Origin: an uncultured Candidatus Saccharibacteria bacterium
GTDB lineage: Bacteria > Patescibacteriota > WWE3 > UBA101185 > UBA10185
DNA: 64,000 nucleotides
Direction of reading: 5' to 3'
NCBI GenBank assembly: GCA_964643995.1
Contig: CAZXUJ010000001.1
Span: 337,492 to 401,491 of the forward strand
Part shown: piece by piece, positions 22,575-45,914 of the stretch
How positions within the stretch are numbered: position 1 is the first letter of the stretch
Layout: each line of letters starts with the position of its first letter
Translations under genes and position numbers: made by a program
Notes under the pieces: model-generated
Databases searched by the model: none
Told to the model about the DNA's origin: nothing
The model's input: the letters and a program-made list of their open reading frames with translations, nothing else

Positions 22575-22895
22575 CTTACTCTTAGCAGACCCACCTACTT
22601 GGCGTGTAAAATCCAATAATGGTTATACAAGACAAAAAACCCGAAAGGTAATAAACCTACGCCAAAAAGCAAAAGCAGGTAGGGCAGTAGTGAAAGACAC
22701 AATTTGCAGATATATATTCTTGAACATAAAACTCGGAGTTGATGAAGTGCTGTCGTACCAGTTAAAAGAGCCATTTGATACATTACTGAAAAGTAAAGAT
22801 ATACATTCTGGTCGAGCAGTACGGTCATGGAATTTTATATTCTCTAGGCTAGAAATGAGACAAAGGAGACAGTATAAAAAAGGGAGTGTTTTTTT

Positions 22896-31100: not shown

Positions 31101-31502
31101 ATATTGCGGCAATTCTGGTTGCTCTTCACTGTATTGCATAGCCATCCATTCGCAGAAGTTGTAGAGATTTCTCAGAGAAGCTAGCGATTCTTTTTCACTA
31201 ATTGGTTTTCGGCTATGAACAGCTTGATTGCCAATTTTGCGGATGTAGTTGATCAAGTGAAAAAGGTTATATGGCAATAATCTTTTGAAACTTGGTTCAT
31301 GCATTAGGGCAGCCAAGTGTGTTTCGTAAGGTTGCTGCAAATCAGAGTCGTGTAAATACAACCAGTTGATGATCAGCTCTACAGTGCGTCGCGCGTAAAA
31401 CACCGAAGTGCGTGGTGCAGTAAACGTATGCTGTTCTGTTTGTAAAGCCTCTTCATAAATCTGCGGCCAGTTATTTTCTAAAAATGTAAAGTTTGATTTC
31501 AT
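28110..31502 (-). CDS. hsdR: Type I restriction enzyme R subunit
   Basis: N-terminal FLENNWPQIYEEALQTE-type domain, PD-(D/E)xK nuclease motif GYVDYVLWGDDGLPVGLVEAKRT, helicase motif I MATGTGKT, DEAH box IIIDEAHRS, and HsdR C-terminal domain; 1130 aa. Confidence 0.85.
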   Translation of the reverse strand: MKSNFTFLENNWPQIYEEALQTEQHTFTAPRTSVFYARRTVELIINWLYLHDSDLQQPYETHLAALMHEPSFKRLLPYNLFHLINYIRKIGNQAVHSRKPISEKESLASLRNLYNFCEWMAMQYSEEQPELPQYSESFIPREGEADKNAEELQQLQDKLDSQGKEFEQQKLLLVEYEEELKELRTQIQVTKEKNKKQVSQKDYSEAETRELFIDLLLKEAGWDPQGENVAEYEVEGMPNNKGIGYVDYVLWGDDGLPVGLVEAKRTTHDAQKGQRQAELYANALEKKHGQRPVIFYTNGYDHWIWEDDMYPPRPIQGFYTKDQLQTMINRRKTRKSLLEAQVNDEVAGRYYQKLAIQSVLEQLEHKERRSLIVMATGTGKTRVSIALVELLMKQGWIKNVLFLADRNALLTQAKEAFNDLYPEATTIDITKEKEDTTSRIVFSTYPTMMNMIDESKKDGVKRFGIGRFDLIIIDEAHRSVYQKYGAIFDYFDSLLIGLTATPKAEVDHNTYELFGLEDHNPTYSYELDQAVEDKFLVPPKQIDVPLKFLTEGLTYDELSEEEKEMYEMTFEDDDGQLPLMIAPSQFNDWVFNTNTVDQVLAHLMENGIKVEGGDRLGKTIIFAKRHEHAMFIQERFNKNYPHYSGRALRVIDNYADYSHTLIDEFKQNKPDSPFIAVSVDMLDTGIDIPEIVNLVFFKITRSKAKFWQMIGRGTRLCPKLFGPDSPEGDKKEFLIFDFCGNFEFFKVNPEGIKGSTQKPLSQLIFERRVELAHELQGGKYSENQPLQDFRLSLLNILHEDVTQMAPMSFSLRKHKRYIDEFSSRDRWENLSKQDVLDVNEHIAPFSNLVVDDDEFARRFDSLMLNLQVESLKESKNLTNSKKRVMTLADLLFEKANIPAVAEKIATINKIKEEAFWSNPTTEDLEEIRRDLRDLIKLLDPPDRKAVYTNFTDTIYGSTVTSSGVVKDAPNRDNYLKRVQSIIRENEFVSAIQKIKNNEKLDQMDIQEIEALLISSNYDIDKTEFENALKGQTVGEFIRSLVGLDRDIAKAAFSEFMQKHNLNAAQMQFLDKVIDHIVATGIVKPGDLYDQPFTFIDDRGIDGVFGPAERDLIFGVLSGIRANAQFSFANA

Positions 31503-32152
31503 AAACTAAATGATTCCACTAATGCAAATAAATTTTTAATAGCAGGATTTTCCGAAAAATAAAAACGATTATCCTCAAGATTCTTTCTGAGAAAGAATTG
31601 ATAATCTACCTCATTCTCTGTAGATATTGTCATCACAAAATCTAGATAGGGATATTTTAACTTAATTTCTTCATCAATCTCATAAGAATCAAGATTTTCA
31701 TCATATCGAAAACCAAATCTTTCTAATAAATTATTCCTATCAACATCTAAGTGATAGGCAAATACTCCAAATAACGGGATATTATCTTTATCCAAGTTTT
31801 TGATAATTTCAGCATCTTCATTTGCCTTTTTAAGATGTTGATTGGTAAGCCTACTTTTTATTTCCAACACTAGTTTGCAATAACGCACATGCATAACAAC
31901 ATTTCTGCTATTCGGTGGATCCAAGGGAGCACTAATTGAACAAAAAATGCTGTCGCATTGGGGACTGTGGGAGTCGTTGTCATTAAATAGTTCACCACTC
32001 TTAACAACTATATTTTTGTGTCGATTTAAAATTAAATCTTTCAAAAAGTCTTCCCTAACTGTTCCTAGGGTTGGTTTATGGATAAACTCACTAGAAACTT
32101 CATATTGAGCTAGAAGAAGTTTTTGATAATACTCAAAAACTGCATTAGACAT
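31499..32152 (-). CDS. Hypothetical protein inserted between hsdS and hsdR (possible D...ExK nuclease-like)
   Basis: 217-aa ORF overlapping hsdS by 8 nt at its start and overlapping hsdR's start (ATGA). QCDSIF ... CKLVLEIKSR gives a D...ExK-like pattern; this is an inference. Confidence 0.45.
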   Translation of the reverse strand: MSNAVFEYYQKLLLAQYEVSSEFIHKPTLGTVREDFLKDLILNRHKNIVVKSGELFNDNDSHSPQCDSIFCSISAPLDPPNSRNVVMHVRYCKLVLEIKSRLTNQHLKKANEDAEIIKNLDKDNIPLFGVFAYHLDVDRNNLLERFGFRYDENLDSYEIDEEIKLKYPYLDFVMTISTENEVDYQFFLRKNLEDNRFYFSENPAIKNLFALVESFSL

Positions 32153-33323
32153 TTAGACCTCCTATAAATGCTTTTTGCAGTAGAGATCTAAATAATATAT
32201 TGGTTACCTCTTTCGAGTTAATCATTGATTTTTTATTATCATCAATTGATTCAATTAACAACCTATACCTAGTCTGTAACTCAATAGGTGGTGTCAATAC
32301 GCTTATTTTTAATAAATTAGTTTGATTAATACCAGAGATTGTTGACTGAGTAATGTAGGGCTTAACATATTTATTTTTTGACCTTGTGTTGTTAAAAAAC
32401 TGCAGTAAATATTCACTATCAATTTTTGTTTGATTGGGTCTCACTCTAATTAGTGAGGATTCAAACACTAAATCATTGTTATCAATATTCCTAACAATGC
32501 TAGCCTTTGCTGCACCTTCAAGAACCAAAGATCTTCGTGCTATTAACAAATCATTATTATTTAATTGGTATTTTTCCAAATCATCCTTTGTTAACTCAAC
32601 AGACTGTTCAACCTCAGGTGTTACAACATCAGAAAATGCATCTGACATATGCACCATGGGAGTTCCCTCAACATTGTATTTTTCTTTTGGTAGGTATAAG
32701 CCATTTTTTGTATCTTCGACCAATTTATCCAAGGTAATCTCATCCCAGTTTTTAGGATTAGAGGCGGGATCTCCAAAAATTTCATAAAAAATAGCCTCTT
32801 TTAGTTCAGCCAATTTTTCAATTGTTTTTTCTCTTTTCTTTTGCATAGCATCGGCCTCGTCCAAAATCTCCACAATTTGCTGTTGTACTTTAAGTTGAGG
32901 AAGGGGGACTTTAATTTTTTTTAAGTATTTAAAATGACGGCTATACCCGTCATTAGGAAGATTTAATGTATGAAAAAAATAGTAGGCATACTTTGGCTCA
33001 ATCTTTTTATTGCAAGAAATAATTTTGGTACCATCTGCCCCAGCCGCAAAATCAAAATCGATATATTTAAACTTTCTAGTGTGATCCCCAAAAATAATTA
33101 GAGGTTGTGATGCTTCAATAATACCAATATTATTGTTCGTATAACCACCTATAAGCTCATCTCCCTGATCAACGATTGGATAAACCCCCTCATCTATATA
33201 AGATGATTTCTTGAACTTTTTTGGAGGTGTGATGGTATCAAACAAGGCATCAAAGGTAGCAATATCCCAAGTATTTGGCAGACTAGAAAATAATGCTGGA
33301 TTTTGAATTACACTATTTATCAT
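32145..33323 (-). CDS. hsdS: Type I restriction-modification specificity subunit
   Basis: Two target-recognition domains separated by the conserved central helix (LPLPQLKVQQQIVEILDEADAMQKKRE), with a conserved C-terminal repeat (LLQKAFIGGL). Confidence 0.8.
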   Translation of the reverse strand: MINSVIQNPALFSSLPNTWDIATFDALFDTITPPKKFKKSSYIDEGVYPIVDQGDELIGGYTNNNIGIIEASQPLIIFGDHTRKFKYIDFDFAAGADGTKIISCNKKIEPKYAYYFFHTLNLPNDGYSRHFKYLKKIKVPLPQLKVQQQIVEILDEADAMQKKREKTIEKLAELKEAIFYEIFGDPASNPKNWDEITLDKLVEDTKNGLYLPKEKYNVEGTPMVHMSDAFSDVVTPEVEQSVELTKDDLEKYQLNNNDLLIARRSLVLEGAAKASIVRNIDNNDLVFESSLIRVRPNQTKIDSEYLLQFFNNTRSKNKYVKPYITQSTISGINQTNLLKISVLTPPIELQTRYRLLIESIDDNKKSMINSKEVTNILFRSLLQKAFIGGLNV

Positions 33324-34840
33324 AGGTTAGTTTTTAATCTCTTTAGACTTTCCTGAATTTCATATTCAATTTTTTCTAAATCCTCAATAATCCTCTTTGG
33401 TTCTTCATATTCCACGTCTTCATACTCAATCTCTTTATACCGATTTATTGAGAGGTCATAGTCATTTTCGCGGATTTCTTTGACTGGCACTACGAAAGAT
33501 TGATCGGTTCTTACCCTGGCTTCTTCATCTTTAAGATTATGATAGCGTTTGATGATATCGGGAGTGTTATTTTCCTCATGTTTTTCAAGATCAAGCTCTT
33601 GGCGTTTATCATCAAGCGAATACCCATCAGCCTTCATGTCATAAAACCAAACGTTATCAGTACCGCCTGAGTTGGTCTTTGTAAACAGAAGCACTGCAGT
33701 AGAAACACCCGCGTAAGGTTTGAATACACCAGATGGCATGGATATTACTCCTTGAAGCTGATGATCATCTATAAGAAGTTTTCTAATTGCCTTATGCGCA
33801 TTGGAGCTACCAAACAACACACCATCGGGAACAATTACTGCGGCACGGCCACCAGTTCTAAGTTGTTGGATAAATAATGCAATAAACAACAACTCAGTTT
33901 TCTTAGTTCGGACAATCTGCAATAAATCATTTGCTACCACTTCATAATCCAACGATCCTTTAAATGGAGGATTGGCTAGAATCACATCATATTTGTTTCT
34001 TGTTTCTGCTTGGCTTTGAGATAGTGCATCCTTGTCAGTCACGTTGGGGTTTTCGATACCGTGAAGCACTAAGTTCATCACAGCAATACGGATCATAGTA
34101 CGATCAAAGTCGTTGCCATAAAACATAGTGTTGTTGAAATGATCTCGCAATTTATCATCAGTAAATATTTCGGGATAGGTATCACGGACATATTCACTAG
34201 CTGCTACTAAAAATCCTCCAGTTCCACAAGCAGGATCCGCAATCTTGTCAGTTCGCTTTGGTTCCACCAACTCAACCATCATTTTAATAATGTGTCGTGG
34301 AGTTCTAAATTGACCGTTTCTACCTGCCGTCGCTATTTTTGAAAGTAAGTATTCGTACACATCTCCCTTGGTATCTCTGTCATGCATCTTGATTTCATTG
34401 AGCATGTTGACGACCTTGTCCAACAGGTTTGGGGTAGGAATCATGAAGGTTGCATCTTTCATGTATTGGGTATAGGTGTCCTCTGTTTTGCCATTTAGGT
34501 TTTTTATAAAGGGAAAAACATCCTCAGAAACAATCTCATACATCTTTTTGGGCTCAAGATCTTTAAACCTAGACCAACGCAGTTGTTGTTGATTATCAGA
34601 AAAGATTGGCTTAGTTATTTCAGTTTTTTGTGCGTTAGCCTTATTTTCACGCAGTGTGTGGATTTCATCTAAACGTTTAATAAAAAGGAGATATGTGATT
34701 TGTTCTATGACTGTTAGTGGATTAGAAATACCACCTGTCCAAAAAGCATCCCATACTCTGTCAATTTCTGTTTTTAATTTTCCTGTTAACATAAGGACAT
34801 TATAACTCGTGATTTTGTTGTAGTCCTGCAATTTATACAA
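33320..34840 (-). CDS. hsdM: Type I restriction-modification DNA methyltransferase subunit (N6-adenine)
   Basis: HsdM N-terminal domain, motif I DPACGTGGFL, motif IV ILANPPFKGS. The stop overlaps the hsdS start. Confidence 0.85.
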   Translation of the reverse strand: MYKLQDYNKITSYNVLMLTGKLKTEIDRVWDAFWTGGISNPLTVIEQITYLLFIKRLDEIHTLRENKANAQKTEITKPIFSDNQQQLRWSRFKDLEPKKMYEIVSEDVFPFIKNLNGKTEDTYTQYMKDATFMIPTPNLLDKVVNMLNEIKMHDRDTKGDVYEYLLSKIATAGRNGQFRTPRHIIKMMVELVEPKRTDKIADPACGTGGFLVAASEYVRDTYPEIFTDDKLRDHFNNTMFYGNDFDRTMIRIAVMNLVLHGIENPNVTDKDALSQSQAETRNKYDVILANPPFKGSLDYEVVANDLLQIVRTKKTELLFIALFIQQLRTGGRAAVIVPDGVLFGSSNAHKAIRKLLIDDHQLQGVISMPSGVFKPYAGVSTAVLLFTKTNSGGTDNVWFYDMKADGYSLDDKRQELDLEKHEENNTPDIIKRYHNLKDEEARVRTDQSFVVPVKEIRENDYDLSINRYKEIEYEDVEYEEPKRIIEDLEKIEYEIQESLKRLKTNL

Positions 34841-35054
34841 TATTAGTTAGCGGTTGCACCCCCTCTTGTCAAGTAGGGGTTGGTTTGACAACTAAAAACA
34901 AGTGTTGTACTTTATAATTATTGAGAGTTGAATAGTAAAAAAATACCTACCTCTTACTTCATAGTAAGCAGGTTATGCTCGATATGTATGGGGCCGAGCG
35001 TTAGGAAGTAATCACTTCGATTATTTTCTGGCGTTCGGCCCTTTTTTTGTTTGT

Positions 35055-36374
35055 ATGAAAGAAGAATTAAAAATAATAAAAGTTAATATTAAGGACTTAA
35101 AAGTTGCAGATTATAACCCTCGAAAGTGGGATAAAACAAAAACTCAAAATTTAAAAGAAAGTATTGGAAAATTTGGGCTAGTTGATCCCTTGATTGTTAA
35201 TTCTGCACCAAGTAGAAATAATGTTGTAATTGGTGGCCATTTTCGCTTACAAGTTGTCAAAGAACTTGGCTATGCAGATGTACCAATTGTCTATTTAAAT
35301 ATTCCAGATATTGAAAAAGAAAAGGAATTGAATGTAAGGCTTAATAAGAATACAGGTGATTGGGATTACAAGTTGTTAGCCGAGTTTGACTCCTCCTTAC
35401 TAGATATTGTTGGTTTTAACAGTGAGGAGCTAGACGATATCTTTGGTTTAGACGAAACCCCAGAAGAGTTTAATCTGCAAAAAGAGTTAGAAAAATTAAA
35501 CATTCAAGAAATTTCTACAGTAGATGGTGATATCTATCAATTGGGTGAACATCGCCTAATGTGTGGTAATTCAACAATAGAAGATGATGTCCTAAAACTC
35601 ATGGACGGCGAAAAAGCGGATATGTGTTTTACAGACCCTCCATATATTCTCGACTATTTGAAAGGTAAAAAGAAAAGCGATAAGGGTTTTGGACTAAAGA
35701 AAAATAGAAGGTATTTAGGTACAGATTCATTGCCTGATGATTTCACTGAATTATGGATGTCAAACATCTCAAAAGTACAAAAGGATGACTTCTCAATCAT
35801 TGTTTTTGAGAATTGGAAAAACATAAGAACTATCTGGGATGCAATGGAAGATTACTGGAAAGTTAAAAACATGATTGTTTGGCATGTTCCAAATAGGACA
35901 CAGGGGTTTTCTGGAAAATACAGATTTTTCTCAAAGCATGATATTGCAATGGTTGGTGCGTCTCCAAATTCTGATATTCCTTTTAATCTAGAAGAAGAAA
36001 TTGAGGGTCTACAAAATGAGTATGAAACGGCACTATATGCAATTTCTGGTAAACCTCATTGGGAAAGTTATAAAAAGGGTAAAAAATACCAACCAACAGA
36101 TTATATTGATCATCCTGTAGATGATGCCAAACATTCAGGACAAGGTATCGTATTTGGTACGAAACCAATAGAAATATTAATTCCCTATATAAAAGTTTTA
36201 ACTAAAAGAAATGATTTAATAATTGAGCCTTTTGGTGGTAGTGGCTCTACTCTTATTGCCTCTACAAAGATGAAAAGAAGATGCTATGTGATGGAAAAAT
36301 CCCCCGTTTATGTAGAAATAATAAAACATAGATGGGAAAAATTGACTGGGCAGAAAGGGGTAAAAATACAATGA
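35055..36374 (+). CDS. ParB-like nuclease domain fused to DNA methyltransferase (phage-type orphan N6A/N4C MTase)
   Basis: N-terminal ParB/Srx fold (KVADYNPRKW..., GGHFRLQVVKELG). C-terminal MTase motifs DPPY (MCFTDPPY) and FGGSGST (IIEPFGGSGSTLIAS). Confidence 0.8.
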   Translation: MKEELKIIKVNIKDLKVADYNPRKWDKTKTQNLKESIGKFGLVDPLIVNSAPSRNNVVIGGHFRLQVVKELGYADVPIVYLNIPDIEKEKELNVRLNKNTGDWDYKLLAEFDSSLLDIVGFNSEELDDIFGLDETPEEFNLQKELEKLNIQEISTVDGDIYQLGEHRLMCGNSTIEDDVLKLMDGEKADMCFTDPPYILDYLKGKKKSDKGFGLKKNRRYLGTDSLPDDFTELWMSNISKVQKDDFSIIVFENWKNIRTIWDAMEDYWKVKNMIVWHVPNRTQGFSGKYRFFSKHDIAMVGASPNSDIPFNLEEEIEGLQNEYETALYAISGKPHWESYKKGKKYQPTDYIDHPVDDAKHSGQGIVFGTKPIEILIPYIKVLTKRNDLIIEPFGGSGSTLIASTKMKRRCYVMEKSPVYVEIIKHRWEKLTGQKGVKIQ

Positions 36375-36778
36375 GCAAATTAATTCAAAAAAGGCAAAAG
36401 CAAGAAAAAGAAGCATTAATAGAACAATTGAAGAAAACCCCAATAATACAAATGGCGTGCAAAAATGCAGGTGTTGGGAGAGCAACATACTATCGCTGGA
36501 GAAACCAAGATTACAAATTCGCACAAAAAGCAGATGAAGCATTAGAAATGAGTGTAAGTCTTATGAATGATTTAGCTGAGTCCCAGCTTATATCAGCAAT
36601 TAGAGACAAAAACATGACTGCAATAATCTTTTGGTTAAAACATAGGCATCAAGGTTATTCCACAAAAGTACTACTTTCTGGCTCCCTTGAGACCTCTATA
36701 AAGCTTTCTCCTGAACAACAGAAAGTATTTAAAAAAGCCGTACATTTAGTTTTTGGTGAGAATTCAGATGTCGAATAA
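36371..36778 (+). CDS. terS: Phage terminase small subunit (HTH-containing)
   Basis: HTH GVGRATYYRWRN and the IIFWLKHRH motif typical of small terminases. ATGA overlap with the upstream MTase; followed directly by terL. Confidence 0.6.
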   Translation: MSKLIQKRQKQEKEALIEQLKKTPIIQMACKNAGVGRATYYRWRNQDYKFAQKADEALEMSVSLMNDLAESQLISAIRDKNMTAIIFWLKHRHQGYSTKVLLSGSLETSIKLSPEQQKVFKKAVHLVFGENSDVE

Positions 36779-38324
36779 TACACGAAAAAAAGACTTAGAT
36801 ATTGTTTACGAAAGAATCCTAAGCGATAAAGCTTTTAGAATTAAGACTACTTCTGAGATGCACAAGTGGTTTTTTGTTACCTATTTTAGTGAATATGCAA
36901 AGTACAAGATTGCCCCTTTCCAAGAAGAAATGTTCAGATTAAGTGAATTGGATGATACTCCTCTAGTTGTTATCGAAGCGTTCAGGGGTTGTGGAAAGAC
37001 AACTATATTAGTTCTTTCGTACATCTTGTGGGCTGTTTTAGGTAGTCAGGGGAAAAAACACATCTTGATTGCTAGTCAAAGCTTAGATAAAGCAATGAGT
37101 ACCTTAAGAGATATAAAGACCATTCTTGAGACTAATAAATTGCTTATAGATGATTATGGGCCCTTTAGAATTCCTCCTGAACCTTGGAAAGAAAAATCGC
37201 TACACCTACCAAAGTATGATGCAAAAATAGTTCCTATTTCAGTGGAAGTAAGTCCAAGAGGCTATATACACAAAAGCAAAAGACCTGACTTAATAATTAT
37301 TGATGACCTCGAAAGTATAAATACCATAAATTCAGTTGAAATGAGAGATAAAGCGTTTAAATGGTACATGGAAGAAGTTGTTCCTAGTGGTGATGTGGAT
37401 ACAAAGATTGTAATAACAGGTAACTTTTTACATTCTGATTCTTTAATAAAACGCCTGCAAGTAATGATTGATAATGATGAGCTTGACGGCATTTATAGGC
37501 GGTATCCTTTTTATGATTCAGATAATAAACCTTTGTGGTTTAGTAAATTTCCTACATCTAAAGAAATCACCGCTTTAAAGAAAAAGGTTGGAAAAGATTC
37601 TTGGCTAAGAGAGTATCTGTTGGAGGATATTCCAGTCGGAACTAGCCCAATAACTAAAAACCTAATCAAGTATTACTCTGATTTACCTACTCAAAACATT
37701 GCCAAACAAATAAAACTACAGTATGTGGGTACGGGAGTTGACCTCGCTATATCCAAACAATCTACTGCACACTACACAGCTATGGTGTCCGTAAAGGTAT
37801 TTTATGTAGGTAACAAAGTTAATGTCTATATCCTTCCAAATCCTATAAACGCTAGATTAACTTTCCCAGAAGCATTCGATACTGTAAAAAGAGTTTCCAA
37901 AGCATTAGATCCAAATGGGGATGCAACCCCAATAATAGTTGAGACCATAGCTTATCAGGAGGCAATGGAACAGGCTCTAGTGCAGGAAACATTTCCTGTT
38001 AAAGGAATAAAACACAATTCGCTAGATAAAATGGCAAGATTAAGTTTAGTTGCAAATTTTATGGCAGACCATAATATCAATTTTCCAACGTCTGGTTCTG
38101 AATTGCTTATTTCTCAACTTTTAGGTTTTGGTAGTGAAAGATACGACGATCTTGCTGATGCTTTCACAATGATCATGACTGAAGTAATGGAAAGATGTAG
38201 TTTTAGACCATACAACTGGGATTACAAACCAAAGCCAGCACCCCCTTCTAAAAGTTTATTTAGTGACTTACATAGAGATATGTCTGATCCTGTAACAAAA
38301 GGACTAATAGACATGAAATTCTAA
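36753..38324 (+). CDS. terL: Phage terminase large subunit (ATPase + nuclease)
   Basis: Walker A-like FRGCGKTTIL, Walker B LIIIDDLE, and a C-terminal RNaseH-like nuclease region (GVDLAIS...DLADAF). Sits downstream of terS. Confidence 0.75.
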   Translation: MVRIQMSNNTRKKDLDIVYERILSDKAFRIKTTSEMHKWFFVTYFSEYAKYKIAPFQEEMFRLSELDDTPLVVIEAFRGCGKTTILVLSYILWAVLGSQGKKHILIASQSLDKAMSTLRDIKTILETNKLLIDDYGPFRIPPEPWKEKSLHLPKYDAKIVPISVEVSPRGYIHKSKRPDLIIIDDLESINTINSVEMRDKAFKWYMEEVVPSGDVDTKIVITGNFLHSDSLIKRLQVMIDNDELDGIYRRYPFYDSDNKPLWFSKFPTSKEITALKKKVGKDSWLREYLLEDIPVGTSPITKNLIKYYSDLPTQNIAKQIKLQYVGTGVDLAISKQSTAHYTAMVSVKVFYVGNKVNVYILPNPINARLTFPEAFDTVKRVSKALDPNGDATPIIVETIAYQEAMEQALVQETFPVKGIKHNSLDKMARLSLVANFMADHNINFPTSGSELLISQLLGFGSERYDDLADAFTMIMTEVMERCSFRPYNWDYKPKPAPPSKSLFSDLHRDMSDPVTKGLIDMKF

Positions 38325-38446
38325 CCTTTTGAGGTATAATTGCCTTAGAAAATTAAACAGCCGCGAAGAAAATCCACTATTTTGTGGTGCATGAAACCTT
38401 AAAAGGGGCTACTCTTCAGGGTTTCATGCTTCGCGGCTGTTACTAC

Positions 38447-38464
38447 AAGGGTAGTCCCTTTTTT
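38447..38464 (+). terminator. Intrinsic terminator downstream of terL and of a large hairpin
   Basis: AAGGG-tagt-CCCTT stem-loop followed by TTTTTT. Confidence 0.45.
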
Positions 38465-38555
38465 ATGTACAGTTGCAAAAATAACTACAATTTAAAAACT
38501 TGCCTATATTTAAGTGGTCTGTCATCAATCATCTTGAAAAATAAATTTATATTGT

Positions 38556-39302
38556 ATGGAGGTGATTAATACGGAAAATAATGAAAACAAACCAAAAAAG
38601 AAAAGTAAGTTAACAATGTTGGGTTATATAATCGGTGGATTATTCATATTTGGAGGTGTCAGTTTCATCTTTTCAAAAGAGACTGGACCGCTGGTTGGTT
38701 TAGGGTACTTAGCTTCGGGTTTAGTTGTATTTCCTCCGTTTTGGGAGTTTATGAAAAAGAAATACGATTTTGTATTATCTAGACCACTAAAAATTATGGC
38801 ATTTTTAGTTCTTATGGGAATTACAGGAGGTTTACTGGTGCAGAGAGCTGATAAATATCAAGAACCTAAACCTACTGTAGAAAAGATTACCAACGTTACG
38901 TCGCCTACAGTAAAAAAGGAAGTTAAAACTACGCCCAAAATTGTTGAAGAAAAACCCAAAGTAGAGCCTTTGGATATAGCTATTACAAGCCAGATCGTTA
39001 AAAAAGTAGATGGAAAATGCAGATACTTTTTTGATGTAAGGAACACTGATGTAAATGAATTTGAAGGTTCTGTAGAAATTGCACTTATGAACTCATCCGG
39101 AAGTACTTTAGGCAGAGAAACTTTCAACACCAATAAACCTATCCAACCATCTTTAGGTTCAACTGTTTATTTTGATATAAACACTTGTCCAGGGGGAGAA
39201 TTAGGAATATCAGATTATTCATACAAGGTTATGGTTGGGAAAGATATAGTAGCTGAGGGTAAGAAAAGTATTACTTCTAAGTATGAGAACTTGAGTTATT
39301 GA
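38556..39302 (+). CDS. Hypothetical membrane-anchored protein
   Basis: Two N-terminal hydrophobic helices, then a Lys/Pro/Val-rich linker (KKEVKTTPKIVEEKPKVEP) and a beta-rich C-terminal domain. Confidence 0.4.
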   Translation: MEVINTENNENKPKKKSKLTMLGYIIGGLFIFGGVSFIFSKETGPLVGLGYLASGLVVFPPFWEFMKKKYDFVLSRPLKIMAFLVLMGITGGLLVQRADKYQEPKPTVEKITNVTSPTVKKEVKTTPKIVEEKPKVEPLDIAITSQIVKKVDGKCRYFFDVRNTDVNEFEGSVEIALMNSSGSTLGRETFNTNKPIQPSLGSTVYFDINTCPGGELGISDYSYKVMVGKDIVAEGKKSITSKYENLSY

Positions 39303-40114
39303 CCATCTTGGAAGAACCTCTCTGGAGGTTCTTCCACTTGGTTGTTGTCAATTTTTGATAATGCATTTGAGAAGTCGGTTTCAACTTGTTTAAGTATTTG
39401 TTTCAAATCCTCTTTCACATTTCGTCTGAATTCATTTTGACCTTTTAGCCAAAAATGCTGTGTTGTATTGAAATCATAAAAAATTAACTCACTTGTTTCC
39501 CACATCATCAATAACATAAAGTTTGCTAATGATAGGTTTGCTAACGTTCTATATGAAAGTTTCTCTGTATACCCGCCACCTACAATTAGGGTGCCTTCAT
39601 GCATATTGTAATGTGTTCCGATAACTTGCCTTGATGGGTGCGTAACTTTACTCAAAATTCCATACATAGTGCCTGCATCTTTAATTACTGTTTTTAGATA
39701 ACGTATACAATCGTTGCCGCTAACTTTATTTTTTTTATATTTTTCAAATATTGTTTCATCAGCATGAAATGCGAATGCCAAAGCAAGACTTTCAAACGCA
39801 GACCGCATTAGATATTGAGGTTCTAGCACATATCCCTGCTTACTTAATTGAATGGCGCCAATCATGGTGTTACAGGCTTGCCAAATTATCGCTTGTGATT
39901 CAAACAACTCATCAGATACCTTTTCCTGTTCTGTGTTTACAATGATATCTAAGATTTTGTATATATGCGTGAGGATGAAGACATTGTGTGCTAATTGAAC
40001 TTTAAACTTTTTGTTGACTTCCTTTTGAGCATTTTCCGAGTACTCATACATAACTTTAGTTATTAATTCTGCATAATGTCTTAGCTTAGGATCGTTGTGT
40101 ATTTTATCGGTCAT
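39296..40114 (-). CDS. Hypothetical protein
   Basis: 272-aa ORF in the phage-like module; no family recognised. Confidence 0.4.
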   Translation of the reverse strand: MTDKIHNDPKLRHYAELITKVMYEYSENAQKEVNKKFKVQLAHNVFILTHIYKILDIIVNTEQEKVSDELFESQAIIWQACNTMIGAIQLSKQGYVLEPQYLMRSAFESLALAFAFHADETIFEKYKKNKVSGNDCIRYLKTVIKDAGTMYGILSKVTHPSRQVIGTHYNMHEGTLIVGGGYTEKLSYRTLANLSLANFMLLMMWETSELIFYDFNTTQHFWLKGQNEFRRNVKEDLKQILKQVETDFSNALSKIDNNQVEEPPERFFQDGQ

Positions 40115-40196
40115 AGTGCAATTATACTTGGGAAAAGGAAATGCAGGTGAAGTTGTTTTTTCTCAAGAGTTCGTATTTCCAATAGACATTTAGTTT

Positions 40197-40703
40197 TTAT
40201 TGCAATATTTTTGTCATATCTTCTAATAGTGTTTGGCAAAGTTTTTTATTCTCATCTTGTTGCTCTTTTGTAAGAATGTATTGTTCTTTTGTTTGAAAAT
40301 CCATGAGAGCAATAGTTTCGTTATTTGCCTTAAAATACACAGGGTTTAAAACAAACAGTGAATGTTTTACTAAATTTAAAATTTTATTGAACTTCTCTAA
40401 ATCACTAATGATTCTTAGATGCTCTTCTGTGGTAATACCTACCAATTGTAAGTCTATAGATTTAAACTTAGTAAGGTGTTTCCCTAACATGCCTGAGTTT
40501 ACGGGCTGTTCAAACATTTCCAACACTTGCGATAAACTTAGTATAAGGCTATTTCCTAAGGACAATATTGCTCCCATATACATCCATACTCTTTGTATAT
40601 ATTGATCCGCAATTGTTGGTCCATCAGTTGTTTTTTGTATATATATCATCTTCAACGATTTTAGCATTTTAAGTTGCCGTGTTATTAAAAGTATGTCATC
40701 CAT
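40197..40703 (-). CDS. Hypothetical protein
   Basis: 168-aa ORF diverging from the recombinase gene; no family recognised. Confidence 0.35.
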   Translation of the reverse strand: MDDILLITRQLKMLKSLKMIYIQKTTDGPTIADQYIQRVWMYMGAILSLGNSLILSLSQVLEMFEQPVNSGMLGKHLTKFKSIDLQLVGITTEEHLRIISDLEKFNKILNLVKHSLFVLNPVYFKANNETIALMDFQTKEQYILTKEQQDENKKLCQTLLEDMTKILQ

Positions 40704-40710
40704 TGTGTAG

Positions 40711-42006
40711 ATGACTAAAGCAAAAGAAGAATTAAAATACTGTCTTTATGCTCGCAAAAGTTCGGAATCAGATGAACGGCAAGCACGTTCAATAGAATCT
40801 CAAATTAATGAAATGCAGGAACAAGCAAAGAAAGAAGGATTGAATATCGTAGAAGTTAAAAAAGAGTCGCACAGTGCAAAGATATCGGGGACACGACCTG
40901 TATTCTTGGAGATACTTAAAGAAATTAATTTAGAAAAATACAATGGGATTTTAGCTTGGTCACCAGACCGATTGAGTAGAAATGCAGGAGACTTAGGAAG
41001 TTTAGTAGATTTGATGGATAGAAAGAAACTTGTTCATATTAAAACTTATTCTCAATCTTTTACCAACAACCCAAACGAAAAGTTTTTACTTATGATTTTA
41101 TGTTCCCAAGCAAAGCTAGAGAATGACAACAGATCGCTACATGTTCAAAGAGGTATTAGAAACAAATGTGAAATGGGTTGGAGACCTTGCCCTGCACCTA
41201 TTGGCTATATTAATTACTCCCATGAAGGCACTAAAAAAGTGATGCTTGATAAAGAAGCAGCTCCCTATGTAAAGGAACTGTTTGAACTTGTAGCCCATGC
41301 AAACTATAGCGGAAGAGATTTAAGAGAACATCTAAAACAAGATAAAAATCTCCGACGACTAACTAACAAGAAAATATCTTTAAGTATGATTTATACAATA
41401 TTGAAAACGCCTTTTTATTACGGTGAATTCGAATATCCACAAGGAAGTGGGAAATGGTACAAAGGTGCTCACGAACCCATAATTGAAAAGTGGCTATTTG
41501 ATAAAGTGCAAAGGAAATTAGTCACTTCAAAAAAATCGAAATGGGGTTCAACTTTCTTTTTATTTAAGCATGTATTCAAGTGTGCTTATTGTGGAGCAAA
41601 CTTTGTTGGTGAAGAAAAACATAAAATGCTCAAAGGTGGAAAGAAAAGGACATATACATATTATCGCTGTTCCAGGCAAGTGGATCCGAACTGTGAGGAA
41701 CCGTATGTAAATGAAAATGAATTAATTGGTGAGTTAATCAATTATGTGGGATTGATAGAAAATAAGAGAGACTCAAACCTACATCTAAACAGTAAAATCA
41801 GAGGCAGAATGGATAAATTTACCAAGTTAAGAATGTCTTTACTTGAAGGAAAGAATATAAAAGTCCACGAAAAAGTAACATTTACGGAGTATTTCAAATA
41901 CATTATTTATAATGGAACTAAAGAAGAAAAACAGGAAGCAATTGAAACACTGAAACTACCGTTATTCATTCACAATAAGACTGTTTACACACATCCGTTA
42001 GGATAA
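40711..42006 (+). CDS. Large serine recombinase (resolvase/invertase catalytic domain + recombinase domain + zinc ribbon)
   Basis: N-terminal YARKSSESDERQARSIESQ with a catalytic Ser context and ...SPDRLSRN. A C-terminal Cys cluster (CAYCG ... CSRQVDPNC) forms a zinc-ribbon-like element. 431 aa. Confidence 0.8.
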   Translation: MTKAKEELKYCLYARKSSESDERQARSIESQINEMQEQAKKEGLNIVEVKKESHSAKISGTRPVFLEILKEINLEKYNGILAWSPDRLSRNAGDLGSLVDLMDRKKLVHIKTYSQSFTNNPNEKFLLMILCSQAKLENDNRSLHVQRGIRNKCEMGWRPCPAPIGYINYSHEGTKKVMLDKEAAPYVKELFELVAHANYSGRDLREHLKQDKNLRRLTNKKISLSMIYTILKTPFYYGEFEYPQGSGKWYKGAHEPIIEKWLFDKVQRKLVTSKKSKWGSTFFLFKHVFKCAYCGANFVGEEKHKMLKGGKKRTYTYYRCSRQVDPNCEEPYVNENELIGELINYVGLIENKRDSNLHLNSKIRGRMDKFTKLRMSLLEGKNIKVHEKVTFTEYFKYIIYNGTKEEKQEAIETLKLPLFIHNKTVYTHPLG

Positions 42007-42010
42007 AACA

Positions 42011-42730
42011 TCAAATATTTTCACTAAGTTCAAAAACTTCCCTTTTCGAAGGGAGAGGTAAGGGACTTTTCCCAAAAACAACTTTTTTATTTGTCCCAAG
42101 AGAAAATTTACATGAATCAGGTTTTGAATAGTTATTACCATCATTAACAACATCAATTTCTATTGATTTATCTAGTTCCGGCCAAATTCTAGTAAGCACA
42201 AAAGTTTTATTTGGTTTTGGAATAGGACCTATAAGGTATACTGCTGGTTTTGGCTTTATTTCCCTAATTTCATCATGAACCTTTTTGTGATTAATATGTA
42301 CGTTGTTCTTTGTGATATTGCAAAGGATTATAGTCTTGTCGTCATATGCCTTTTTCGCAAGCTTAGGTGATAGTTTAGTATTTATAAGGAAAGTACCTAA
42401 ATCGAGCGACTCTCTTTCTGAGTATTCAACTACTTCCACATCCTGGAGATTCATGTGTACTGGTTTGTCGTCAGACTCTACTAGATTCATTGTTACTATA
42501 TCTGGAGAGTCATTTATAGCTTTGGGTACCTGCATCATGAAGTGCAATCTTGTAAACTTGTTAATTCCTAGTAGCGCTATTGCTACAACTTTTGCTTCTA
42601 TAACTTTTTTAAATTCTCTGGAAGTTAATACTTTGTCCCCATACGTTTTTAGTAGTTCATCGTAATAAACCAGAACTAATCTAGGGGAAACCCAGCATTT
42701 CTCTTGTGCATTATAATAATCTAGTGACAT
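42011..42730 (-). CDS. Hypothetical protein
   Basis: 239-aa ORF between the recombinase and tRNA-Pro; no family recognised. Confidence 0.4.
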   Translation of the reverse strand: MSLDYYNAQEKCWVSPRLVLVYYDELLKTYGDKVLTSREFKKVIEAKVVAIALLGINKFTRLHFMMQVPKAINDSPDIVTMNLVESDDKPVHMNLQDVEVVEYSERESLDLGTFLINTKLSPKLAKKAYDDKTIILCNITKNNVHINHKKVHDEIREIKPKPAVYLIGPIPKPNKTFVLTRIWPELDKSIEIDVVNDGNNYSKPDSCKFSLGTNKKVVFGKSPLPLPSKREVFELSENI

Positions 42731-42779
42731 ATCTGGATGTTAGCATAATTGCCGTCAACTGATGAGTTATACTTAGTTT

Positions 42780-43004
42780 ATGGATAAGAAAGTTCTTATT
42801 GAAAAACTTAAAAATGCTAGATCGACTATGGTTTTGGAAAGAACCCTCATTCAAGTCTTTGAAGATATGAACTATAAAAACAATCATATAGATTTTGAGG
42901 CTTTCAAGAGGGAGCTTGGCTCTGACATCGCAGTATACATCTCAAAAACTTTGGGTGATGGTAGGGGTATAGTAGAGATTCTTGAAGATCACTATAAAAA
43001 ATAG
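42780..43004 (+). CDS. Hypothetical small protein
   Basis: 74-aa ORF; weak support. Confidence 0.3.
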   Translation: MDKKVLIEKLKNARSTMVLERTLIQVFEDMNYKNNHIDFEAFKRELGSDIAVYISKTLGDGRGIVEILEDHYKK

Positions 43005-43125
43005 ATGTTGTTGTAAACTAAACCAAATCAAGCAAAACAGCGGTTCGTGAGTTAAAAAATCAATAGGGGTTTTATCAAACCATTAACGGGTAATTTAAGC
43101 ATCATGGTCACAATGATGCCCATTC

Positions 43126-43202
43126 TGGTCGGGGTGACAGGACTCGAACCTGCGACCTCACGCACCCCATGCGTGCGCGCTAGCCAACTGCGCCACACCC
43201 CG
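43126..43202 (-). tRNA. tRNA-Pro (anticodon GGG)
   Basis: Minus-strand cloverleaf: acceptor CGGGGUG/CACCCCG, D-stem GCGC/GCGC, anticodon stem CACGC/GCGUG with loop AUGGGGU, T-loop UUCGAGU, discriminator A, and encoded CCA. Confidence 0.85.
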
Positions 43203-43258
43203 ACGTATTCGGCGGGATGGTAGTGATGTACTTATCACGTCACACCCCGACGTATTCG
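43194..43258. repeat. Direct repeat (18 bp x2) comprising the tRNA-Pro 5' end plus flank, bracketing a tRNA-5'-half-like hairpin mini-element
   Basis: CACACCCCGACGTATTCG occurs at 43194-43211 and again at 43241-43258. Between the copies the minus strand reads GUCGGGGUGUGACGUGAUAAGUACAUCACUACCAUCCC. Confidence 0.6.
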
Positions 43259-43332: not shown

Positions 43333-43779
43333 ATGGACGAAAATATACAGCAAACAACAACACCAGCTGCGCCTAAAGTTGAAATAATGTATGCAACTTT
43401 CATGCAAAGATTTCTAGCAGTATTGATTGATGCAGTACTTGTAGGATTAGTTGTTGGTGTCAGTGGAATTATTCTAAACCCAATATTTGGGGGCGAGGAT
43501 GGTATGTTTTACAACCCTCTTGGAATAGTGCTTGGACTTGGGTATGCGATATTCATGCTAACACAGTATGGGGCGACACTTGGAAAAAAGGCACTTGGCA
43601 TAAAGGTTGTTAAACAAGAAGTTGGCGAAAATCTTAATCCCGTAGACGCATTCTTGAGAGAGGTGGTCGGTAAGTGTTTATCGAGCTTTTTCTTGATAGG
43701 ATATCTTTGGATGCTTTGGGACCCAAACAAGCAGACATGGCATGACAAGATAGCAAAGAGTTTAGTTGTGAAAGCTTAA
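43333..43779 (+). CDS. RDD family membrane protein
   Basis: AGGAGGTGA RBS then ATG. RFLAVLIDAVLVGLVVG followed by hydrophobic helices is typical of the RDD domain. Confidence 0.6.
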   Translation: MDENIQQTTTPAAPKVEIMYATFMQRFLAVLIDAVLVGLVVGVSGIILNPIFGGEDGMFYNPLGIVLGLGYAIFMLTQYGATLGKKALGIKVVKQEVGENLNPVDAFLREVVGKCLSSFFLIGYLWMLWDPNKQTWHDKIAKSLVVKA

Positions 43780-44474
43780 GGTGTTTGTAAAACTACTGGA
43801 GGACGTTTAGTAAGCTTTAGATGGAATAAAGGTCTTTCCTGCCCAAAGCTAAGTTTTTTACTCCAAGTTGAATCGAAATTTTTTAAAGTCTCTTTTTGTA
43901 GAGGGCTTATGGTTACCTCCTGAAAACCTACATTCAGAAAATTTGGGACGACGTTAGCCTTAACATACTCTAGACTCAAATTTTCCAAACCCAATCTGTC
44001 AACTTCGGTTGGTTCTGTTTCCTGCGCATAACCAAACAATATTTCTAGCTCGCCATTCTCTTTCAGTAAGTCATACAACTTTTTTGGTGCCTCAGAATCA
44101 GGCAACACTATAGAACTAAGCAGAGAACCCCAAGGCAATATAACCGTTACTTTGGTGGCGAGACCATAGAGCTCCTCAGGCAATAGCTCGATAGAACCTA
44201 AAACAAATAAACAATTATTAACTTTTGTTTTAACAGCTTTTTTGGAATATTTTTCTAGTTGTGCCTGGCTCGGATCTACACCAATAAAAAGGCCATCTTG
44301 GGTTTTGATAGCATTCTTAAAAACAAAACGACCATCACCGGTACCAATATCAATATGGACAGTATTAAATTTTTGGGTTAACTCGGCGAGATCGAGCCTT
44401 GTGATATCGCGAGTTGAACTACCTAGAATCAGTCGCATTGTTGTTATTATAGCCTTTTCAGCTAAAATAATCAT
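43776..44474 (-). CDS. Class I SAM-dependent methyltransferase, NpmA/KamB (16S rRNA m1A1408) family-like
   Basis: VHIDIGTGDGRFVFKNAI...FIGVDP, ILPWGSLL and WSKKLSFGQERPLFHL parallel the HIDLGTGDG / FPWGTLL / WAKRL.FGR blocks recalled for Kmr-family aminoglycoside-resistance methyltransferases. Comparison is from memory only. Confidence 0.5.
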   Translation of the reverse strand: MIILAEKAIITTMRLILGSSTRDITRLDLAELTQKFNTVHIDIGTGDGRFVFKNAIKTQDGLFIGVDPSQAQLEKYSKKAVKTKVNNCLFVLGSIELLPEELYGLATKVTVILPWGSLLSSIVLPDSEAPKKLYDLLKENGELEILFGYAQETEPTEVDRLGLENLSLEYVKANVVPNFLNVGFQEVTISPLQKETLKNFDSTWSKKLSFGQERPLFHLKLTKRPPVVLQTP

Positions 44475-45914
44475 ATGATCCTCGGAAAACGTGTGAATAA
44501 AACATATTTTTGTGAACCCGTTCTAAAAGAGCTGGAGTTCAAAATTGGCAATAATAAGAAGATTGGGATTGTTGGAAAAAACGGTTGTGGGAAAACCACA
44601 CTCTTAAAACTTATTGCAGGAGAAGAATCTACTACTGAAGGAACAATTGAAATTCAGAGTGAAATTGTAGGTTATATTCCACAAGAGCTGGAATTTTCAA
44701 AGGGTTTGGTAGGCGAATTACTTGAAGAAAGTCTAGAGGGGCATTGGGAATTTTACAAAGCTGAGATCCTGGTTAGCCAACTGAACTATGAAAACTTTGA
44801 TGCTTACCAGGAAATAAAAACGTTGAGTGAGGGTCAGAAAATGAAATTAAAATTAATTGAGACACTTCTTAAGGAGCCCACAGTGCTACTTATTGATGAG
44901 CCAACCAATCATTTAGATATTGAGGGCATTCATTGGTTTGAAGATTACATTAAAAATCTACACAAGACGGTAGTTATGATTTCACACGATAGAACATTTT
45001 TGAACAATACCGTAGATGAAATCTGGGAGATAGAAAATGGTTCAATAATAAGATTTGTAGGTGACTATGATAACTACAAAGGCGAAAAACTTAAATTGAT
45101 AGATAAGTGGGACCAGGAGTATGTACTATTTTTAAAGCATAAAGCAAAGCTTGAAAGACTACTCGACAATGCCAGAAAAATAAAGGGGGATAAACGAGGA
45201 AGAGCTGTGAAAGCTGCTAAGAAGAGAATTGACAGAGAAGTCACACAAAACAGCAAAGAAAAGTATTCCACCAAAATAATCAAGAATGTCGAATTTGATA
45301 CCGATACTAGAAAAAGCAAGCTCATGGTACGGTTTGACCACATCACTAAAGATTATGGCGAAAAAAATGTTTTTACAGACTTATCTTTTGAAGTGCGAGG
45401 CAAAGAAAAAGTTTGGTTATTTGGTCCAAATGGTGGTGGAAAAAGCACCATGGTAAAAATGATTATGGGCGAAGAACAGCCTACTGCAGGAAACATAACC
45501 ATTGGTGACAACATACGAGTAGGGTACTTTGCACAAAAACAAACTCACCTAGATTATGATAAAAGCCTGCTAGATCATTTTATTGAAAAAACGGGATGCA
45601 AGTACGATAAAGCATTTGGAATGCTGGACAAATTCTTGTTTGATAAGGATGCGGTAAAAAAACGTGTGCGTAATTTAAGTCCGGGGGAACGTGCTAGATT
45701 TGCATTTGCAATATTTGCATATGAGGATTACGACATGTTGATTTTGGATGAACCGACAAATCATCTGGATATTGATACCAAAGAAGTCATCGAGAAAAGT
45801 TTATCAAAGTACGAAGGAACGCTTCTTTTGGTCTCACATGATAGATATTTTGTTGAAAGTGTTGGTGTAGGAAAGCTGTTAAATCTACGGGAAGGAACTT
45901 TGGAAATACTTTAG
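44475..45914 (+). CDS. ABC-F family ATPase (tandem ABC domains, no TMD)
   Basis: Two Walker A sites (GKNGCGKTT, GPNGGGKST), two ABC signatures (LSEGQKMK, LSPGERAR), and an inter-domain linker with a basic helix. Confidence 0.8.
   Translation: MILGKRVNKTYFCEPVLKELEFKIGNNKKIGIVGKNGCGKTTLLKLIAGEESTTEGTIEIQSEIVGYIPQELEFSKGLVGELLEESLEGHWEFYKAEILVSQLNYENFDAYQEIKTLSEGQKMKLKLIETLLKEPTVLLIDEPTNHLDIEGIHWFEDYIKNLHKTVVMISHDRTFLNNTVDEIWEIENGSIIRFVGDYDNYKGEKLKLIDKWDQEYVLFLKHKAKLERLLDNARKIKGDKRGRAVKAAKKRIDREVTQNSKEKYSTKIIKNVEFDTDTRKSKLMVRFDHITKDYGEKNVFTDLSFEVRGKEKVWLFGPNGGGKSTMVKMIMGEEQPTAGNITIGDNIRVGYFAQKQTHLDYDKSLLDHFIEKTGCKYDKAFGMLDKFLFDKDAVKKRVRNLSPGERARFAFAIFAYEDYDMLILDEPTNHLDIDTKEVIEKSLSKYEGTLLLVSHDRYFVESVGVGKLLNLREGTLEIL

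Follow-up and report, generated by a model that had tools for sequence, protein, structure and literature searches.

A putative satellite-like island with its own terminase and serine recombinase at the 3' end of a tRNA-Pro gene in a Candidatus Saccharibacteria bacterium

Results

A module of four phage-type genes beside tRNA-Pro(GGG)

We analysed a stretch of 64,000 nucleotides, hereafter the window, from an uncultured Candidatus Saccharibacteria bacterium (assembly GCA_964643995.1, contig CAZXUJ010000001.1, positions 337,492 to 401,491), in which positions 35055-43202 carry four phage-type genes and a tRNA gene. An initial annotation, made from the letters alone, had recognised here an intact ParB-domain DNA methyltransferase (the methylase), the small and large subunits of a terminase (TerS and TerL) and a large serine recombinase (LSR), adjoining the 3' end of tRNA-Pro(GGG). 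Pfam and PHROG matches, together with the catalytic motifs, bear out the four genes and their positions, and ARAGORN and Rfam agree on the tRNA. The core features are as follows.

35055-36374, + strand: DNA methyltransferase with ParB_N and N6_N4_Mtase domains, core gene 1 (Pfam 5e-10 and 6e-21; phrog_498 1e-85)
36332-36778, + strand: TerS-like helix-turn-helix (HTH) protein, core gene 2 (PF13022 33.8 bits, cut-off 27.9)
36768-38324, + strand: TerL of the Mu-like type, core gene 3 (phrog_38 3e-58)
40711-42006, + strand: LSR/integrase, core gene 4 (Pfam Resolvase, Recombinase and Zn_ribbon_recom; phrog_95 integrase 2e-57)
43126-43202, - strand: tRNA-Pro(GGG), the probable integration target, with its 3' end toward the module (ARAGORN; Rfam tRNA 60.4 bits)

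The methylase contains both a DPPY and an FGGSGST motif, and its residues G61, R64, D194, G395, S396 and S398 are conserved across relatives. Since its gene overlaps that of TerS by 43 nt, and the latter overlaps that of TerL by 11 nt, the three form one operon. The TerS-like protein matches four PHROG terminase-small families at E<=2e-5 (best 4e-8); as a member of an HTH family encoded directly upstream of TerL it can be assigned to the terminase small subunits, with binding to a pac site as a prediction. TerL is 518 aa long from the ATG at 36768, a start that we adopted because the recorded protein, which is 100% identical, has that form; the upstream TTG at 36753 is the wrong start. Its Walker A (AFRGCGKTT) and Walker B (DLIIIDDLE) motifs are invariant among 18 homologues, as are residues G74/K77/T79, D179/D180/E182, the nuclease aspartates D325 and D460/D461/D464, and in a profile comparison the ATPase domain aligns with T7 gp19. 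The protein thus has the predicted make-up of a terminase large subunit, with N-terminal ATPase and C-terminal RNase-H-like nuclease motifs. Likewise, the LSR has the predicted three-part architecture of its class (catalytic serine, Recombinase domain and zinc ribbon). Its nearest solved structure is the SPbeta integrase YokA/SprA, and the catalytic R15 and S17 and the zinc cysteines C291, C294, C320 and C328 are conserved in 69 family members.

The module recurs in the same order in many lineages

Relatives of the window TerL proved to be abundant. The protein database contains hundreds at 40-47% identity, and we found at least 529 stretches in species-representative genomes (38-46% identity), at least 404 stretches in metagenome contigs and 53 contigs in IMG/VR. 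About three-quarters of the genome records are named after lineages of the Candidate Phyla Radiation (CPR), among them Peribacteria, Saccharibacteria, Woesebacteria, Berkelbacteria and Dojkabacteria; these names are those of the record titles, the remaining quarter or so being generic or from automated third-party assemblies. Open reading frames (ORFs) were called in all fetched loci and clustered by single linkage, and removal of near-duplicates left 185 non-redundant loci. The sequence covered was 10 kb on each side of TerL, with many left ends and any distant structural genes falling outside, and calling took the longest ORF under the standard code, by which lineages with recoded stop codons would be mis-called.

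Throughout these 185 loci the module has one co-oriented order, methylase-TerS-TerL, then 0-12 cargo genes, then LSR. A co-oriented methylase lies just upstream of TerL in every locus with room for it (144/144), accompanied in 63 by a second, shorter methylase, and TerS is recognisable in 113 of the 144. On the downstream side, a co-oriented LSR is present in 120 of the 145 loci with room, directly adjacent to TerL in 53 and after 1-12 variable genes in 67. Any further gene family is common to at most about a tenth of loci. The cargo of the related islands consists mainly of defence genes (Type I, III, IIG and ISP restriction-modification, SNF2 helicases and reverse transcriptases), and some relatives contain XRE-type and excisionase-like small genes. 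Several contigs or genomes have two cassette copies, sometimes in tandem (L019/L028, L090/L104, L098/L103 and L126).

Pairwise similarities of TerL, LSR and methylase were only weakly correlated (Spearman 0.10-0.15), so that co-phylogeny was uninformative; this is explained by the star-like shape of the trees. The reference phage and plasmid collections contained nothing nearer than 34% to TerL, and a literature search on terminases or serine recombinases in Patescibacteria, CPR or Saccharibacteria, incomplete in its coverage, gave no description of the module. The window copy belongs to a large and conserved family of islands that is apparently undescribed.

One variant was seen in L005, L006, L018, L025, L028, L036, L053, L062, L083-L085 and L087, loci whose labels are mostly Peribacteria or Peregrinibacteria. 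Here TerL is present as two tandem paralogues of ~540 and ~520 aa, a 72-aa ORF often stands in for TerS, a conserved 380-aa gene lies upstream, and just after the LSR there is a 71-aa gene that is excisionase-like by eye and has no Pfam match.

All 45 IMG/VR contigs with a TerL of >=35% identity show the cassette, and the 8 remaining ones (TerL <=31%) are ordinary phages. The 45 cassette fragments (L083-L127) are thus catalogued as viral despite having no structural gene, and because they sit there as viral contigs, counts of Patescibacteria viruses or prophages by the terminase hallmark may be inflated. Since IMG/VR includes predicted proviruses, their presence in it is not evidence of encapsidation.

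The recombinase faces the 3' end of a tRNA gene

A tRNA gene was found downstream of the LSR in 57 loci (55 non-redundant), and in all 57 the nearest tRNA is convergent with the LSR. The two are separated by 95 nt to 8.3 kb, with 14 loci below 250 nt. The target tRNAs are mostly Gln and Ser, and Asp, Glu, Asn, Arg, Pro, Tyr and Trp also occur. Some variants (e.g. L172 and L195) have the LSR at the opposite end of the module, where it is still convergent with a tRNA. In six loci, statistically clear direct repeats connect the junction at the tRNA with a position upstream of the module.

L065: direct repeat of 34 nt
L074: direct repeat of about 36 nt
L153: direct repeat of 30 nt
L156: direct repeat of 21 nt
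L197: direct repeat of 21 nt
L162: direct repeat of 44 nt at 86% identity, just outside the tRNA

A further repeat, in L029, was marginal (13 nt). Because five of the six clear repeats, as well as that of L029, overlap with or adjoin the final few nucleotides of the tRNA, the crossover can be placed at the tRNA terminus. The elements delimited in this way measure 9.6-19.3 kb, contain exactly one cassette each and have 3.5-8 kb of cargo upstream of the methylase. Additionally, the left junctions of L065 and L074 have a degenerate tRNA-like arm on their inner side, as expected if attP mimics attB. Of the two marks of an island at a tRNA gene, abutment on the tRNA is confirmed in the window, and a clear repeat at the far end is seen in L065, L074, L153, L156 and L197.

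The choice of tRNA follows the recombinase. In 35 of 55 cases an LSR and its nearest neighbour share the tRNA type, compared with ~25% expected (permutation p = 0.0005). LSR similarity therefore predicts tRNA type, suggesting that the LSR lineage sets the target, and we infer the attP x attB catalysis itself.

A Falkowbacteria metagenome-assembled genome provided a candidate for an extrachromosomal form. The two ends of the 17.3-kb contig L056 (JAFGMD010000010.1, 1-17334) carry a direct repeat of 44 nt, and an ORF for an RHS-like toxin (397 aa) continues across the junction between them; the contig is therefore probably circular. Its cassette has two tandem LSRs of 576 and 582 aa, reminiscent of ccrA/ccrB pairs, and no Rep or partition genes were recognised in it. 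A search for further circular contigs found no terminal repeats among 80 metagenome loci. In L011 (3774-5305), an upstream recombinase is separated from the next cassette by a duplicated tRNA-Arg(TCT), which suggests serial integration at one site.

Extent of the island in the window

Among the relatives found, L216 (a Logan contig, SRR32071872) is the closest; it ends at the same tRNA-Pro junction, GCCCATTCTGGTCGGGGTGAC, and has an LSR with 84% amino acid identity to that of the window. Blocks with 71-78% nucleotide identity are common to both, namely the right end, the LSR, ORF168, ORF272, the methylase and ORF372 (74%). L216 keeps the methylase, TerS, the hairpin that follows TerL in the window and the LSR, and TerL is cleanly lost. 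A SHOCT-domain protein takes the place of ORF248, and the cargo comprises a Type ISP enzyme instead of Type I, an RNase_H_2 protein, a PDDEXK nuclease and a UvrD-like helicase, without Hachiman. Since the common blocks extend out to ORF372, the window island should reach at least 26,989, so that its secure extent can be put at 27.0-43.13 kb at the least. Beyond this point, the best same-strand match to the tRNA 3' junction within 35 kb upstream is at 22804.

22804-22814, + strand: candidate left junction (attL core), CATTCTGGTCG, repeated at 43121-43131
43020-43131, + strand: conserved right end of the island, including the junction core CATTCTGGTCG, 78% identical to the right end of L216

The copy at 43121-43131 covers the last 6 nt of tRNA-Pro, in a register like that of the repeats in L065, L074 and L153, and the copy at 22804 lies in a convergent intergenic gap where GC falls from 0.365 to 0.32. 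No copy of the 3' 25-mer of tRNA-Pro with <=3 mismatches occurs in the window, and an attempted empty-site comparison with the left-flank gene ORF266 found no homologue in 5.8 billion proteins. Taking 22804 as the left junction, the island probably extends over 22.8-43.13 kb (20.3 kb), and the predicted attP junction would read ...AATGATGCC-CATTCTGGTCG-AGCAGTACGG....

The initial annotation had suggested that the module and the adjacent defence operon might be a single mobile island. This holds for at least part of the operon, given the presence of ORF372 in L216 and the upstream cargo of repeat-delimited relatives; the left end at ~22.8 kb, marked by an 11-nt repeat that is not significant by itself, is a candidate. 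The best explanation of the window segment is that it is the conserved end of a mobile island of ~16-20 kb at the 3' terminus of tRNA-Pro(GGG).

Exact look-ups of the window proteins returned only short Logan contigs from a single run, SRR8893623. The break points of these contigs were considered as island ends and dropped, such breaks being frequent and uninformative.

Virion and replication genes are not recognisable in the island

Apart from the core genes, the segment contains five hypothetical ORFs.

38556-39302, + strand: ORF248, a membrane-anchored cargo protein of a recurrent family with 8 members in other islands
39296-40114 and 40197-40703, - strand: ORF272 and ORF168, a two-gene unit with 3 homologues only in 5.8 billion proteins
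42011-42730, - strand: ORF239, between LSR and tRNA, no matches
42780-43004, + strand: ORF74, between LSR and tRNA, no matches

The LSR is near the tRNA, as had been noted, but it is not the last gene before it, since ORF239 and ORF74 intervene. One of the 3 homologues of the ORF272/ORF168 unit is in L216, with the same neighbours. Comparison of the five ORFs with PHROG and Pfam profiles, the check proposed at the outset, gave zero matches to capsid, portal or any other family even at E<=5, and the AlphaFold2 models were unusable (pLDDT 36 for ORF272 and 30 for ORF239).

More broadly, no structural genes were found within 10 kb of TerL in about 200 loci or in the region of the 64-kb window that was examined. 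The same approach works on real phages: in L130, L131 and L133, distant TerL relatives at 24-31% identity, PHROGs find portal, protease and major capsid genes right after TerL, the portal of these distant phage relatives being fused to a Mu-F-like domain. When the portal, protease, capsid and tail proteins of the distant relatives were used in tblastn searches, they had zero matches in the window or any cassette locus. Every gene of the repeat-delimited elements L065 and L074 was scanned and proved to be cargo-like or without a match, with no structural, replication or tyrosine-integrase matches; primase, helicase and Rep likewise had no matches in the window core, L065, L074 or L056. These results uphold the earlier statement that portal, capsid and tail genes are not recognisable here, and with the positive control having worked they indicate that the segment is not a complete phage or prophage.

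It is extremely unlikely that a complete prophage is present beyond recognition, with the five ORFs as divergent capsid, portal or tail proteins. They do lack any annotation, and the proteins of CPR phages are poorly covered in databases. Nevertheless, at 74-272 aa, on mixed strands and 3 kb in total they fall short of what a virion needs, ORF248 has a membrane anchor, in 53 loci no gene stands between TerL and LSR, unrelated genes fill this slot elsewhere, including L216, and the structural proteins of the distant relatives were easily detected. A decayed prophage, which the initial annotation had offered as one of two readings, would mean that a temperate phage was once complete here and that its packaging and integration genes are what survives. 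Each of the four core genes is indeed phage-type, and as far as the window alone shows a deletion is possible; however, the same four genes, in the same order and with intact catalytic residues, occur without structural genes in many lineages (the 185 non-redundant loci), and the complete repeat-delimited elements are no larger than 19.3 kb. Because independent decay could not converge on one recurrent intact module, we reject this reading as very unlikely. Taken jointly, a remnant and a cryptic full prophage still have only a small probability.

The order of methylase and TerL is also that of real phages (L128-L130), a supporting hint that the methylase-TerS-TerL module may be of phage ancestry. 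We think it unlikely that transfer is independent of a helper, whether by packaging (Mu-like in situ or lateral transduction) into particles like gene transfer agents encoded elsewhere, or as a plasmid-like episome that integrates reversibly. Such transfer would suit the Mu-like type of TerL (phrog_38), the resemblance of L056 to a circular 17.3-kb molecule and the several copies per genome or contig, but the absence of structural genes within 10 kb of TerL in the loci and in the examined region of the window, and of recognised Rep or partition genes from L056, argues against it.

Defence cargo and flanking genes

Upstream of the methylase, on the opposite strand, the window contains the following genes.

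22896-23480, - strand: ORF194, cargo, no Pfam or PADLOC matches
23488-26034, - strand: Hachiman HamB helicase (PADLOC 1e-245)
26034-26954, - strand: Hachiman HamA (PADLOC 6e-102; Pfam HamA 4e-56)
26989-28107, - strand: ORF372, zinc-ribbon protein of the recurrent island family f5 (Pfam zinc-ribbon matches weak)
28110-31502, - strand: hsdR of a Type I restriction-modification system (PADLOC REase_I 6e-191)
31499-32152, - strand: DUF6602/PD-DExK nuclease-like gene, inserted between hsdS and hsdR (Pfam DUF6602)
32145-33323, - strand: hsdS of the Type I system (PADLOC Specificity_I 1e-74)
33320-34840, - strand: hsdM of the Type I system (PADLOC MTase_I 3e-194)

Type I restriction-modification and Hachiman are clustered within 12 kb, and with several unrelated anti-phage systems at a variable locus this is a defence island. 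The ORF372 family has 20 members, 18 of which lie upstream of the methylase on the opposite strand, beside restriction-modification genes; it may be a restriction-associated or island-maintenance gene.

This setting raises the question of whether the terminase itself serves defence, with TerS and TerL as a DNA-binding ATPase-nuclease effector that attacks invading DNA, or as a decoy that spoils the packaging of phages, the methylase protecting self and the LSR acting only in mobilisation. The methylase is always co-transcribed with TerS and TerL, the islands are full of restriction-modification and other defence genes and devoid of replication and virion genes, and the module is kept in hundreds of streamlined genomes, all of which would be in keeping with such a role. 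Even so, we regard it as unlikely. The linkage of methylase and TerL is inherited from real phages, in which the portal comes after TerL, and TerL retains the full set of packaging-type ATPase and nuclease motifs. Moreover, L216 without TerL keeps an intact methylase, TerS and LSR, which would be odd if TerL were the effector, and within the module PADLOC matches only the methylase; TerS, TerL and LSR were outside that scan.

The genes that flank the island are housekeeping genes, including a short ValS, TruB, an ABC-F protein and MltG, and they indicate a genome of the Patescibacteria, as do the names of the genomes with the nearest TerL relatives. Just beyond the island (43776-45914) there is a homologue of the NpmA/KamB-like 16S rRNA A1408 methyltransferases, which at 129 bits scores well under the family cut-off; beside it lies an ABC-F ribosomal-protection-type ATPase with a score above the NCBIfam cut-off. 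The pair may provide intrinsic protection against aminoglycosides or ribosome-targeting antibiotics.

Structured non-coding elements

Two strongly structured non-coding elements border the operon.

34993-35048, + strand: leader-terminator-like hairpin with a perfect 20-bp stem and a T-run (terminator scan; leader fold z = -7.5)
38344-38470, + strand: structured element of ~125 nt directly 3' of the TerL stop codon (MFE, minimum free energy, -63 kcal/mol; z = -7.9)

The leader hairpin ends 7 nt before the methylase start, between the divergent hsdM and methylase genes, and because these genes diverge it terminates no upstream gene. Structure with z < -3 is present within 110 nt upstream of the methylase in 27 of 97 loci. 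The hairpin fits a methylase-TerS-TerL operon that would stay silent until an antiterminator or activator comes.

The element after TerL is bipartite, a long hairpin being followed by a small terminator-like one, and its loop GGGGCTAC could instead pair with the downstream GTAGTCCC. It is ~93% identical in L216 (4209-4340, - strand), compared with 71-75% for coding DNA, even though L216 is without TerL. It also follows TerL in L119 (6093-6235, + strand), where the outer stem differs in sequence but still pairs. No Rfam family corresponds to it. A covariance model of the hairpin finds the window, L216 and L119, with a weak match in L198; the hairpin belongs to a subclade and is no pac site of the family as a whole. 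For that subclade it may serve as a regulatory RNA or as a site of packaging or recombination.

At the far side of the tRNA there is an exact 18-nt direct repeat, CACACCCCGACGTATTCG, at 43194-43211 and 43241-43258. The copies are 47 nt apart, none is expected by chance, and the first spans the first 9 nt of tRNA-Pro and 9 nt upstream. The repeat may have been left by another recombination event, or it may be a promoter element that was duplicated.

Discussion

A proposed helper-dependent, satellite-like island

The recurrent module, the absence of structural genes and the integration geometry at tRNA ends agree with the satellite-like unit without virion genes that the initial annotation had envisaged. 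We consider it probable, though by no means strongly so, that the island depends on a helper in the manner of a satellite and is packaged by a terminase of its own. In such an island, the LSR would integrate and excise the element through a crossover at the final few nucleotides of the tRNA gene, with specificity given by the LSR lineage. The methylase-TerS-TerL operon, lying behind its leader terminator, would be turned on by infection with a helper phage; TerS would then bind island DNA and TerL would drive it into helper procapsids. The methylase would pre-methylate the island DNA, allowing it to survive restriction in the recipient cell, where the packaged island would integrate at the cognate tRNA. 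The defence cargo would repay the upkeep of the island in a very small genome. The loss of TerL and retention of TerS in L216 fits TerS as the specificity factor and TerL as replaceable by that of the helper, a SaPI-like solution (SaPI, Staphylococcus aureus pathogenicity island).

Several points weigh against this interpretation. TerL must dock on a portal, and among known satellites TerL comes together with capsid and portal genes of the same element, as in the capsid-forming phage-inducible chromosomal islands (cf-PICIs). In the window island, neither a replication module nor a recognisable excision factor was found. The direct repeats of serine integrases are usually shorter than the 21-36 nt seen here, and the 11-nt CATTCTGGTCG repeat is not significant by itself (score 11 against a shuffle maximum of 13, p estimated at ~0.1). 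The downstream LSR is absent in ~17% of loci with room, and the census, being anchored on TerL, is blind to TerL-less relatives such as L216. Finally, the broad retention of the module in genomes of ~1 Mb could just as well reflect a benefit of the module itself to the cell.

Implications

According to one paper, as of 2025 only a single phage of Patescibacteria was on record, and the defence systems recognised in genomes of the phylum were very few (PMC12366544). Whether the islands form a new class of satellites or 'hitchers' across Patescibacteria, the sole class to combine both terminase subunits with the lack of any capsid gene, with a clade of LSRs specific for tRNA ends and a role as the main vehicle of the phylum's defence systems, seems to us evenly balanced; the terminase may even have taken on a new task, in the transfer of DNA by non-viral means or as an effector similar to a restriction system. 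If true, gene flow and the exchange of defence genes would have a major channel that has been overlooked, a single conserved type of island in hundreds of species, in a phylum that makes up a very large share of bacterial diversity. Such an island would also broaden the definition of a satellite to TerS and TerL without capsid or replication genes, and it would offer a handle on the missing phages, since helpers must have portals compatible with this TerL clade. In addition, the islands provide a natural collection of LSRs with predictable targets at tRNA ends, with possible use in genome engineering.

Comparison with known systems

On this interpretation the island works like a phage satellite or 'hitcher' and is not a member of any described class. 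The initial annotation had likened it to the phage-inducible chromosomal islands, or PICIs, and much of the likeness to PICIs and SaPIs is real, since these too are chromosomal islands of ~10-20 kb with a fixed att site, their own integrase and TerS, no virion genes and often defence cargo. Membership does not follow. PICIs and SaPIs have a tyrosine integrase, a master regulator of the Stl/AlpA type and a primase-replicase with an origin, and they use the TerL of the helper, whereas in this family the sole recombinase is an LSR, TerL is encoded by the island itself, a ParB-methylase is obligatory, and modules for replication or regulation are not recognisable. The cf-PICIs are the known satellites that encode both TerS and TerL, as here; in contrast, their capsid, portal, protease and head-tail connectors were not found in these islands.

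The PICI-like elements (PLEs) have a RepA-type replication initiator and integrate in Vibrio repeats, not in tRNA genes. To our knowledge they have no terminase genes and are confined to V. cholerae. The likeness to them lies in the LSR integrase only, the RepA-type initiator, dependence on ICP1 and the Vibrio host being absent or not applicable here. The PLEs of Vibrio cholerae are described as the sole reference satellites with a serine recombinase as integrase (PMC9618062). Among the VEIMEs (integrative mobile elements encapsidated in virions), some have a serine recombinase, TerS homologues, and methyltransferases or restriction-modification genes (PMC9618062), and the core of the PICMIs (minimalist chromosomal islands inducible by phages) consists of a tyrosine integrase, AlpA and a primase and lacks terS (PMC10803314). 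Both are marine minimalist satellites that resemble the present family as small integrative elements without capsid genes, and both ride in helper particles, as our islands are predicted to. However, VEIMEs are defined by their recovery from virions and have mostly a tyrosine integrase and replication genes, with no report of the four-gene module.

Individual components also have counterparts in complete phages. With the phage LSRs (SPbeta SprA/YokA, TP901-1, A118 and Bxb1) the recombinase has in common the three-domain architecture, the catalytic serine and the zinc ribbon, and YokA is its best match; these phage LSRs target protein-coding genes or intergenic sites, whereas this clade is consistently found at tRNA 3' ends. 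The window LSR is <=28% identical to any reference-phage integrase. Similarly, the phrog_38 type of TerL is that of Mu-like packaging modules, the top reference matches including Mu-like phages of Pseudomonas, Mannheimia and Helicobacter. In those phages, whose TerL is 22-34% identical to that of the window, the genes go on to portal/Mu-F, protease and capsid, whereas in the islands TerL is followed by variable cargo and a recombinase that faces a tRNA gene.

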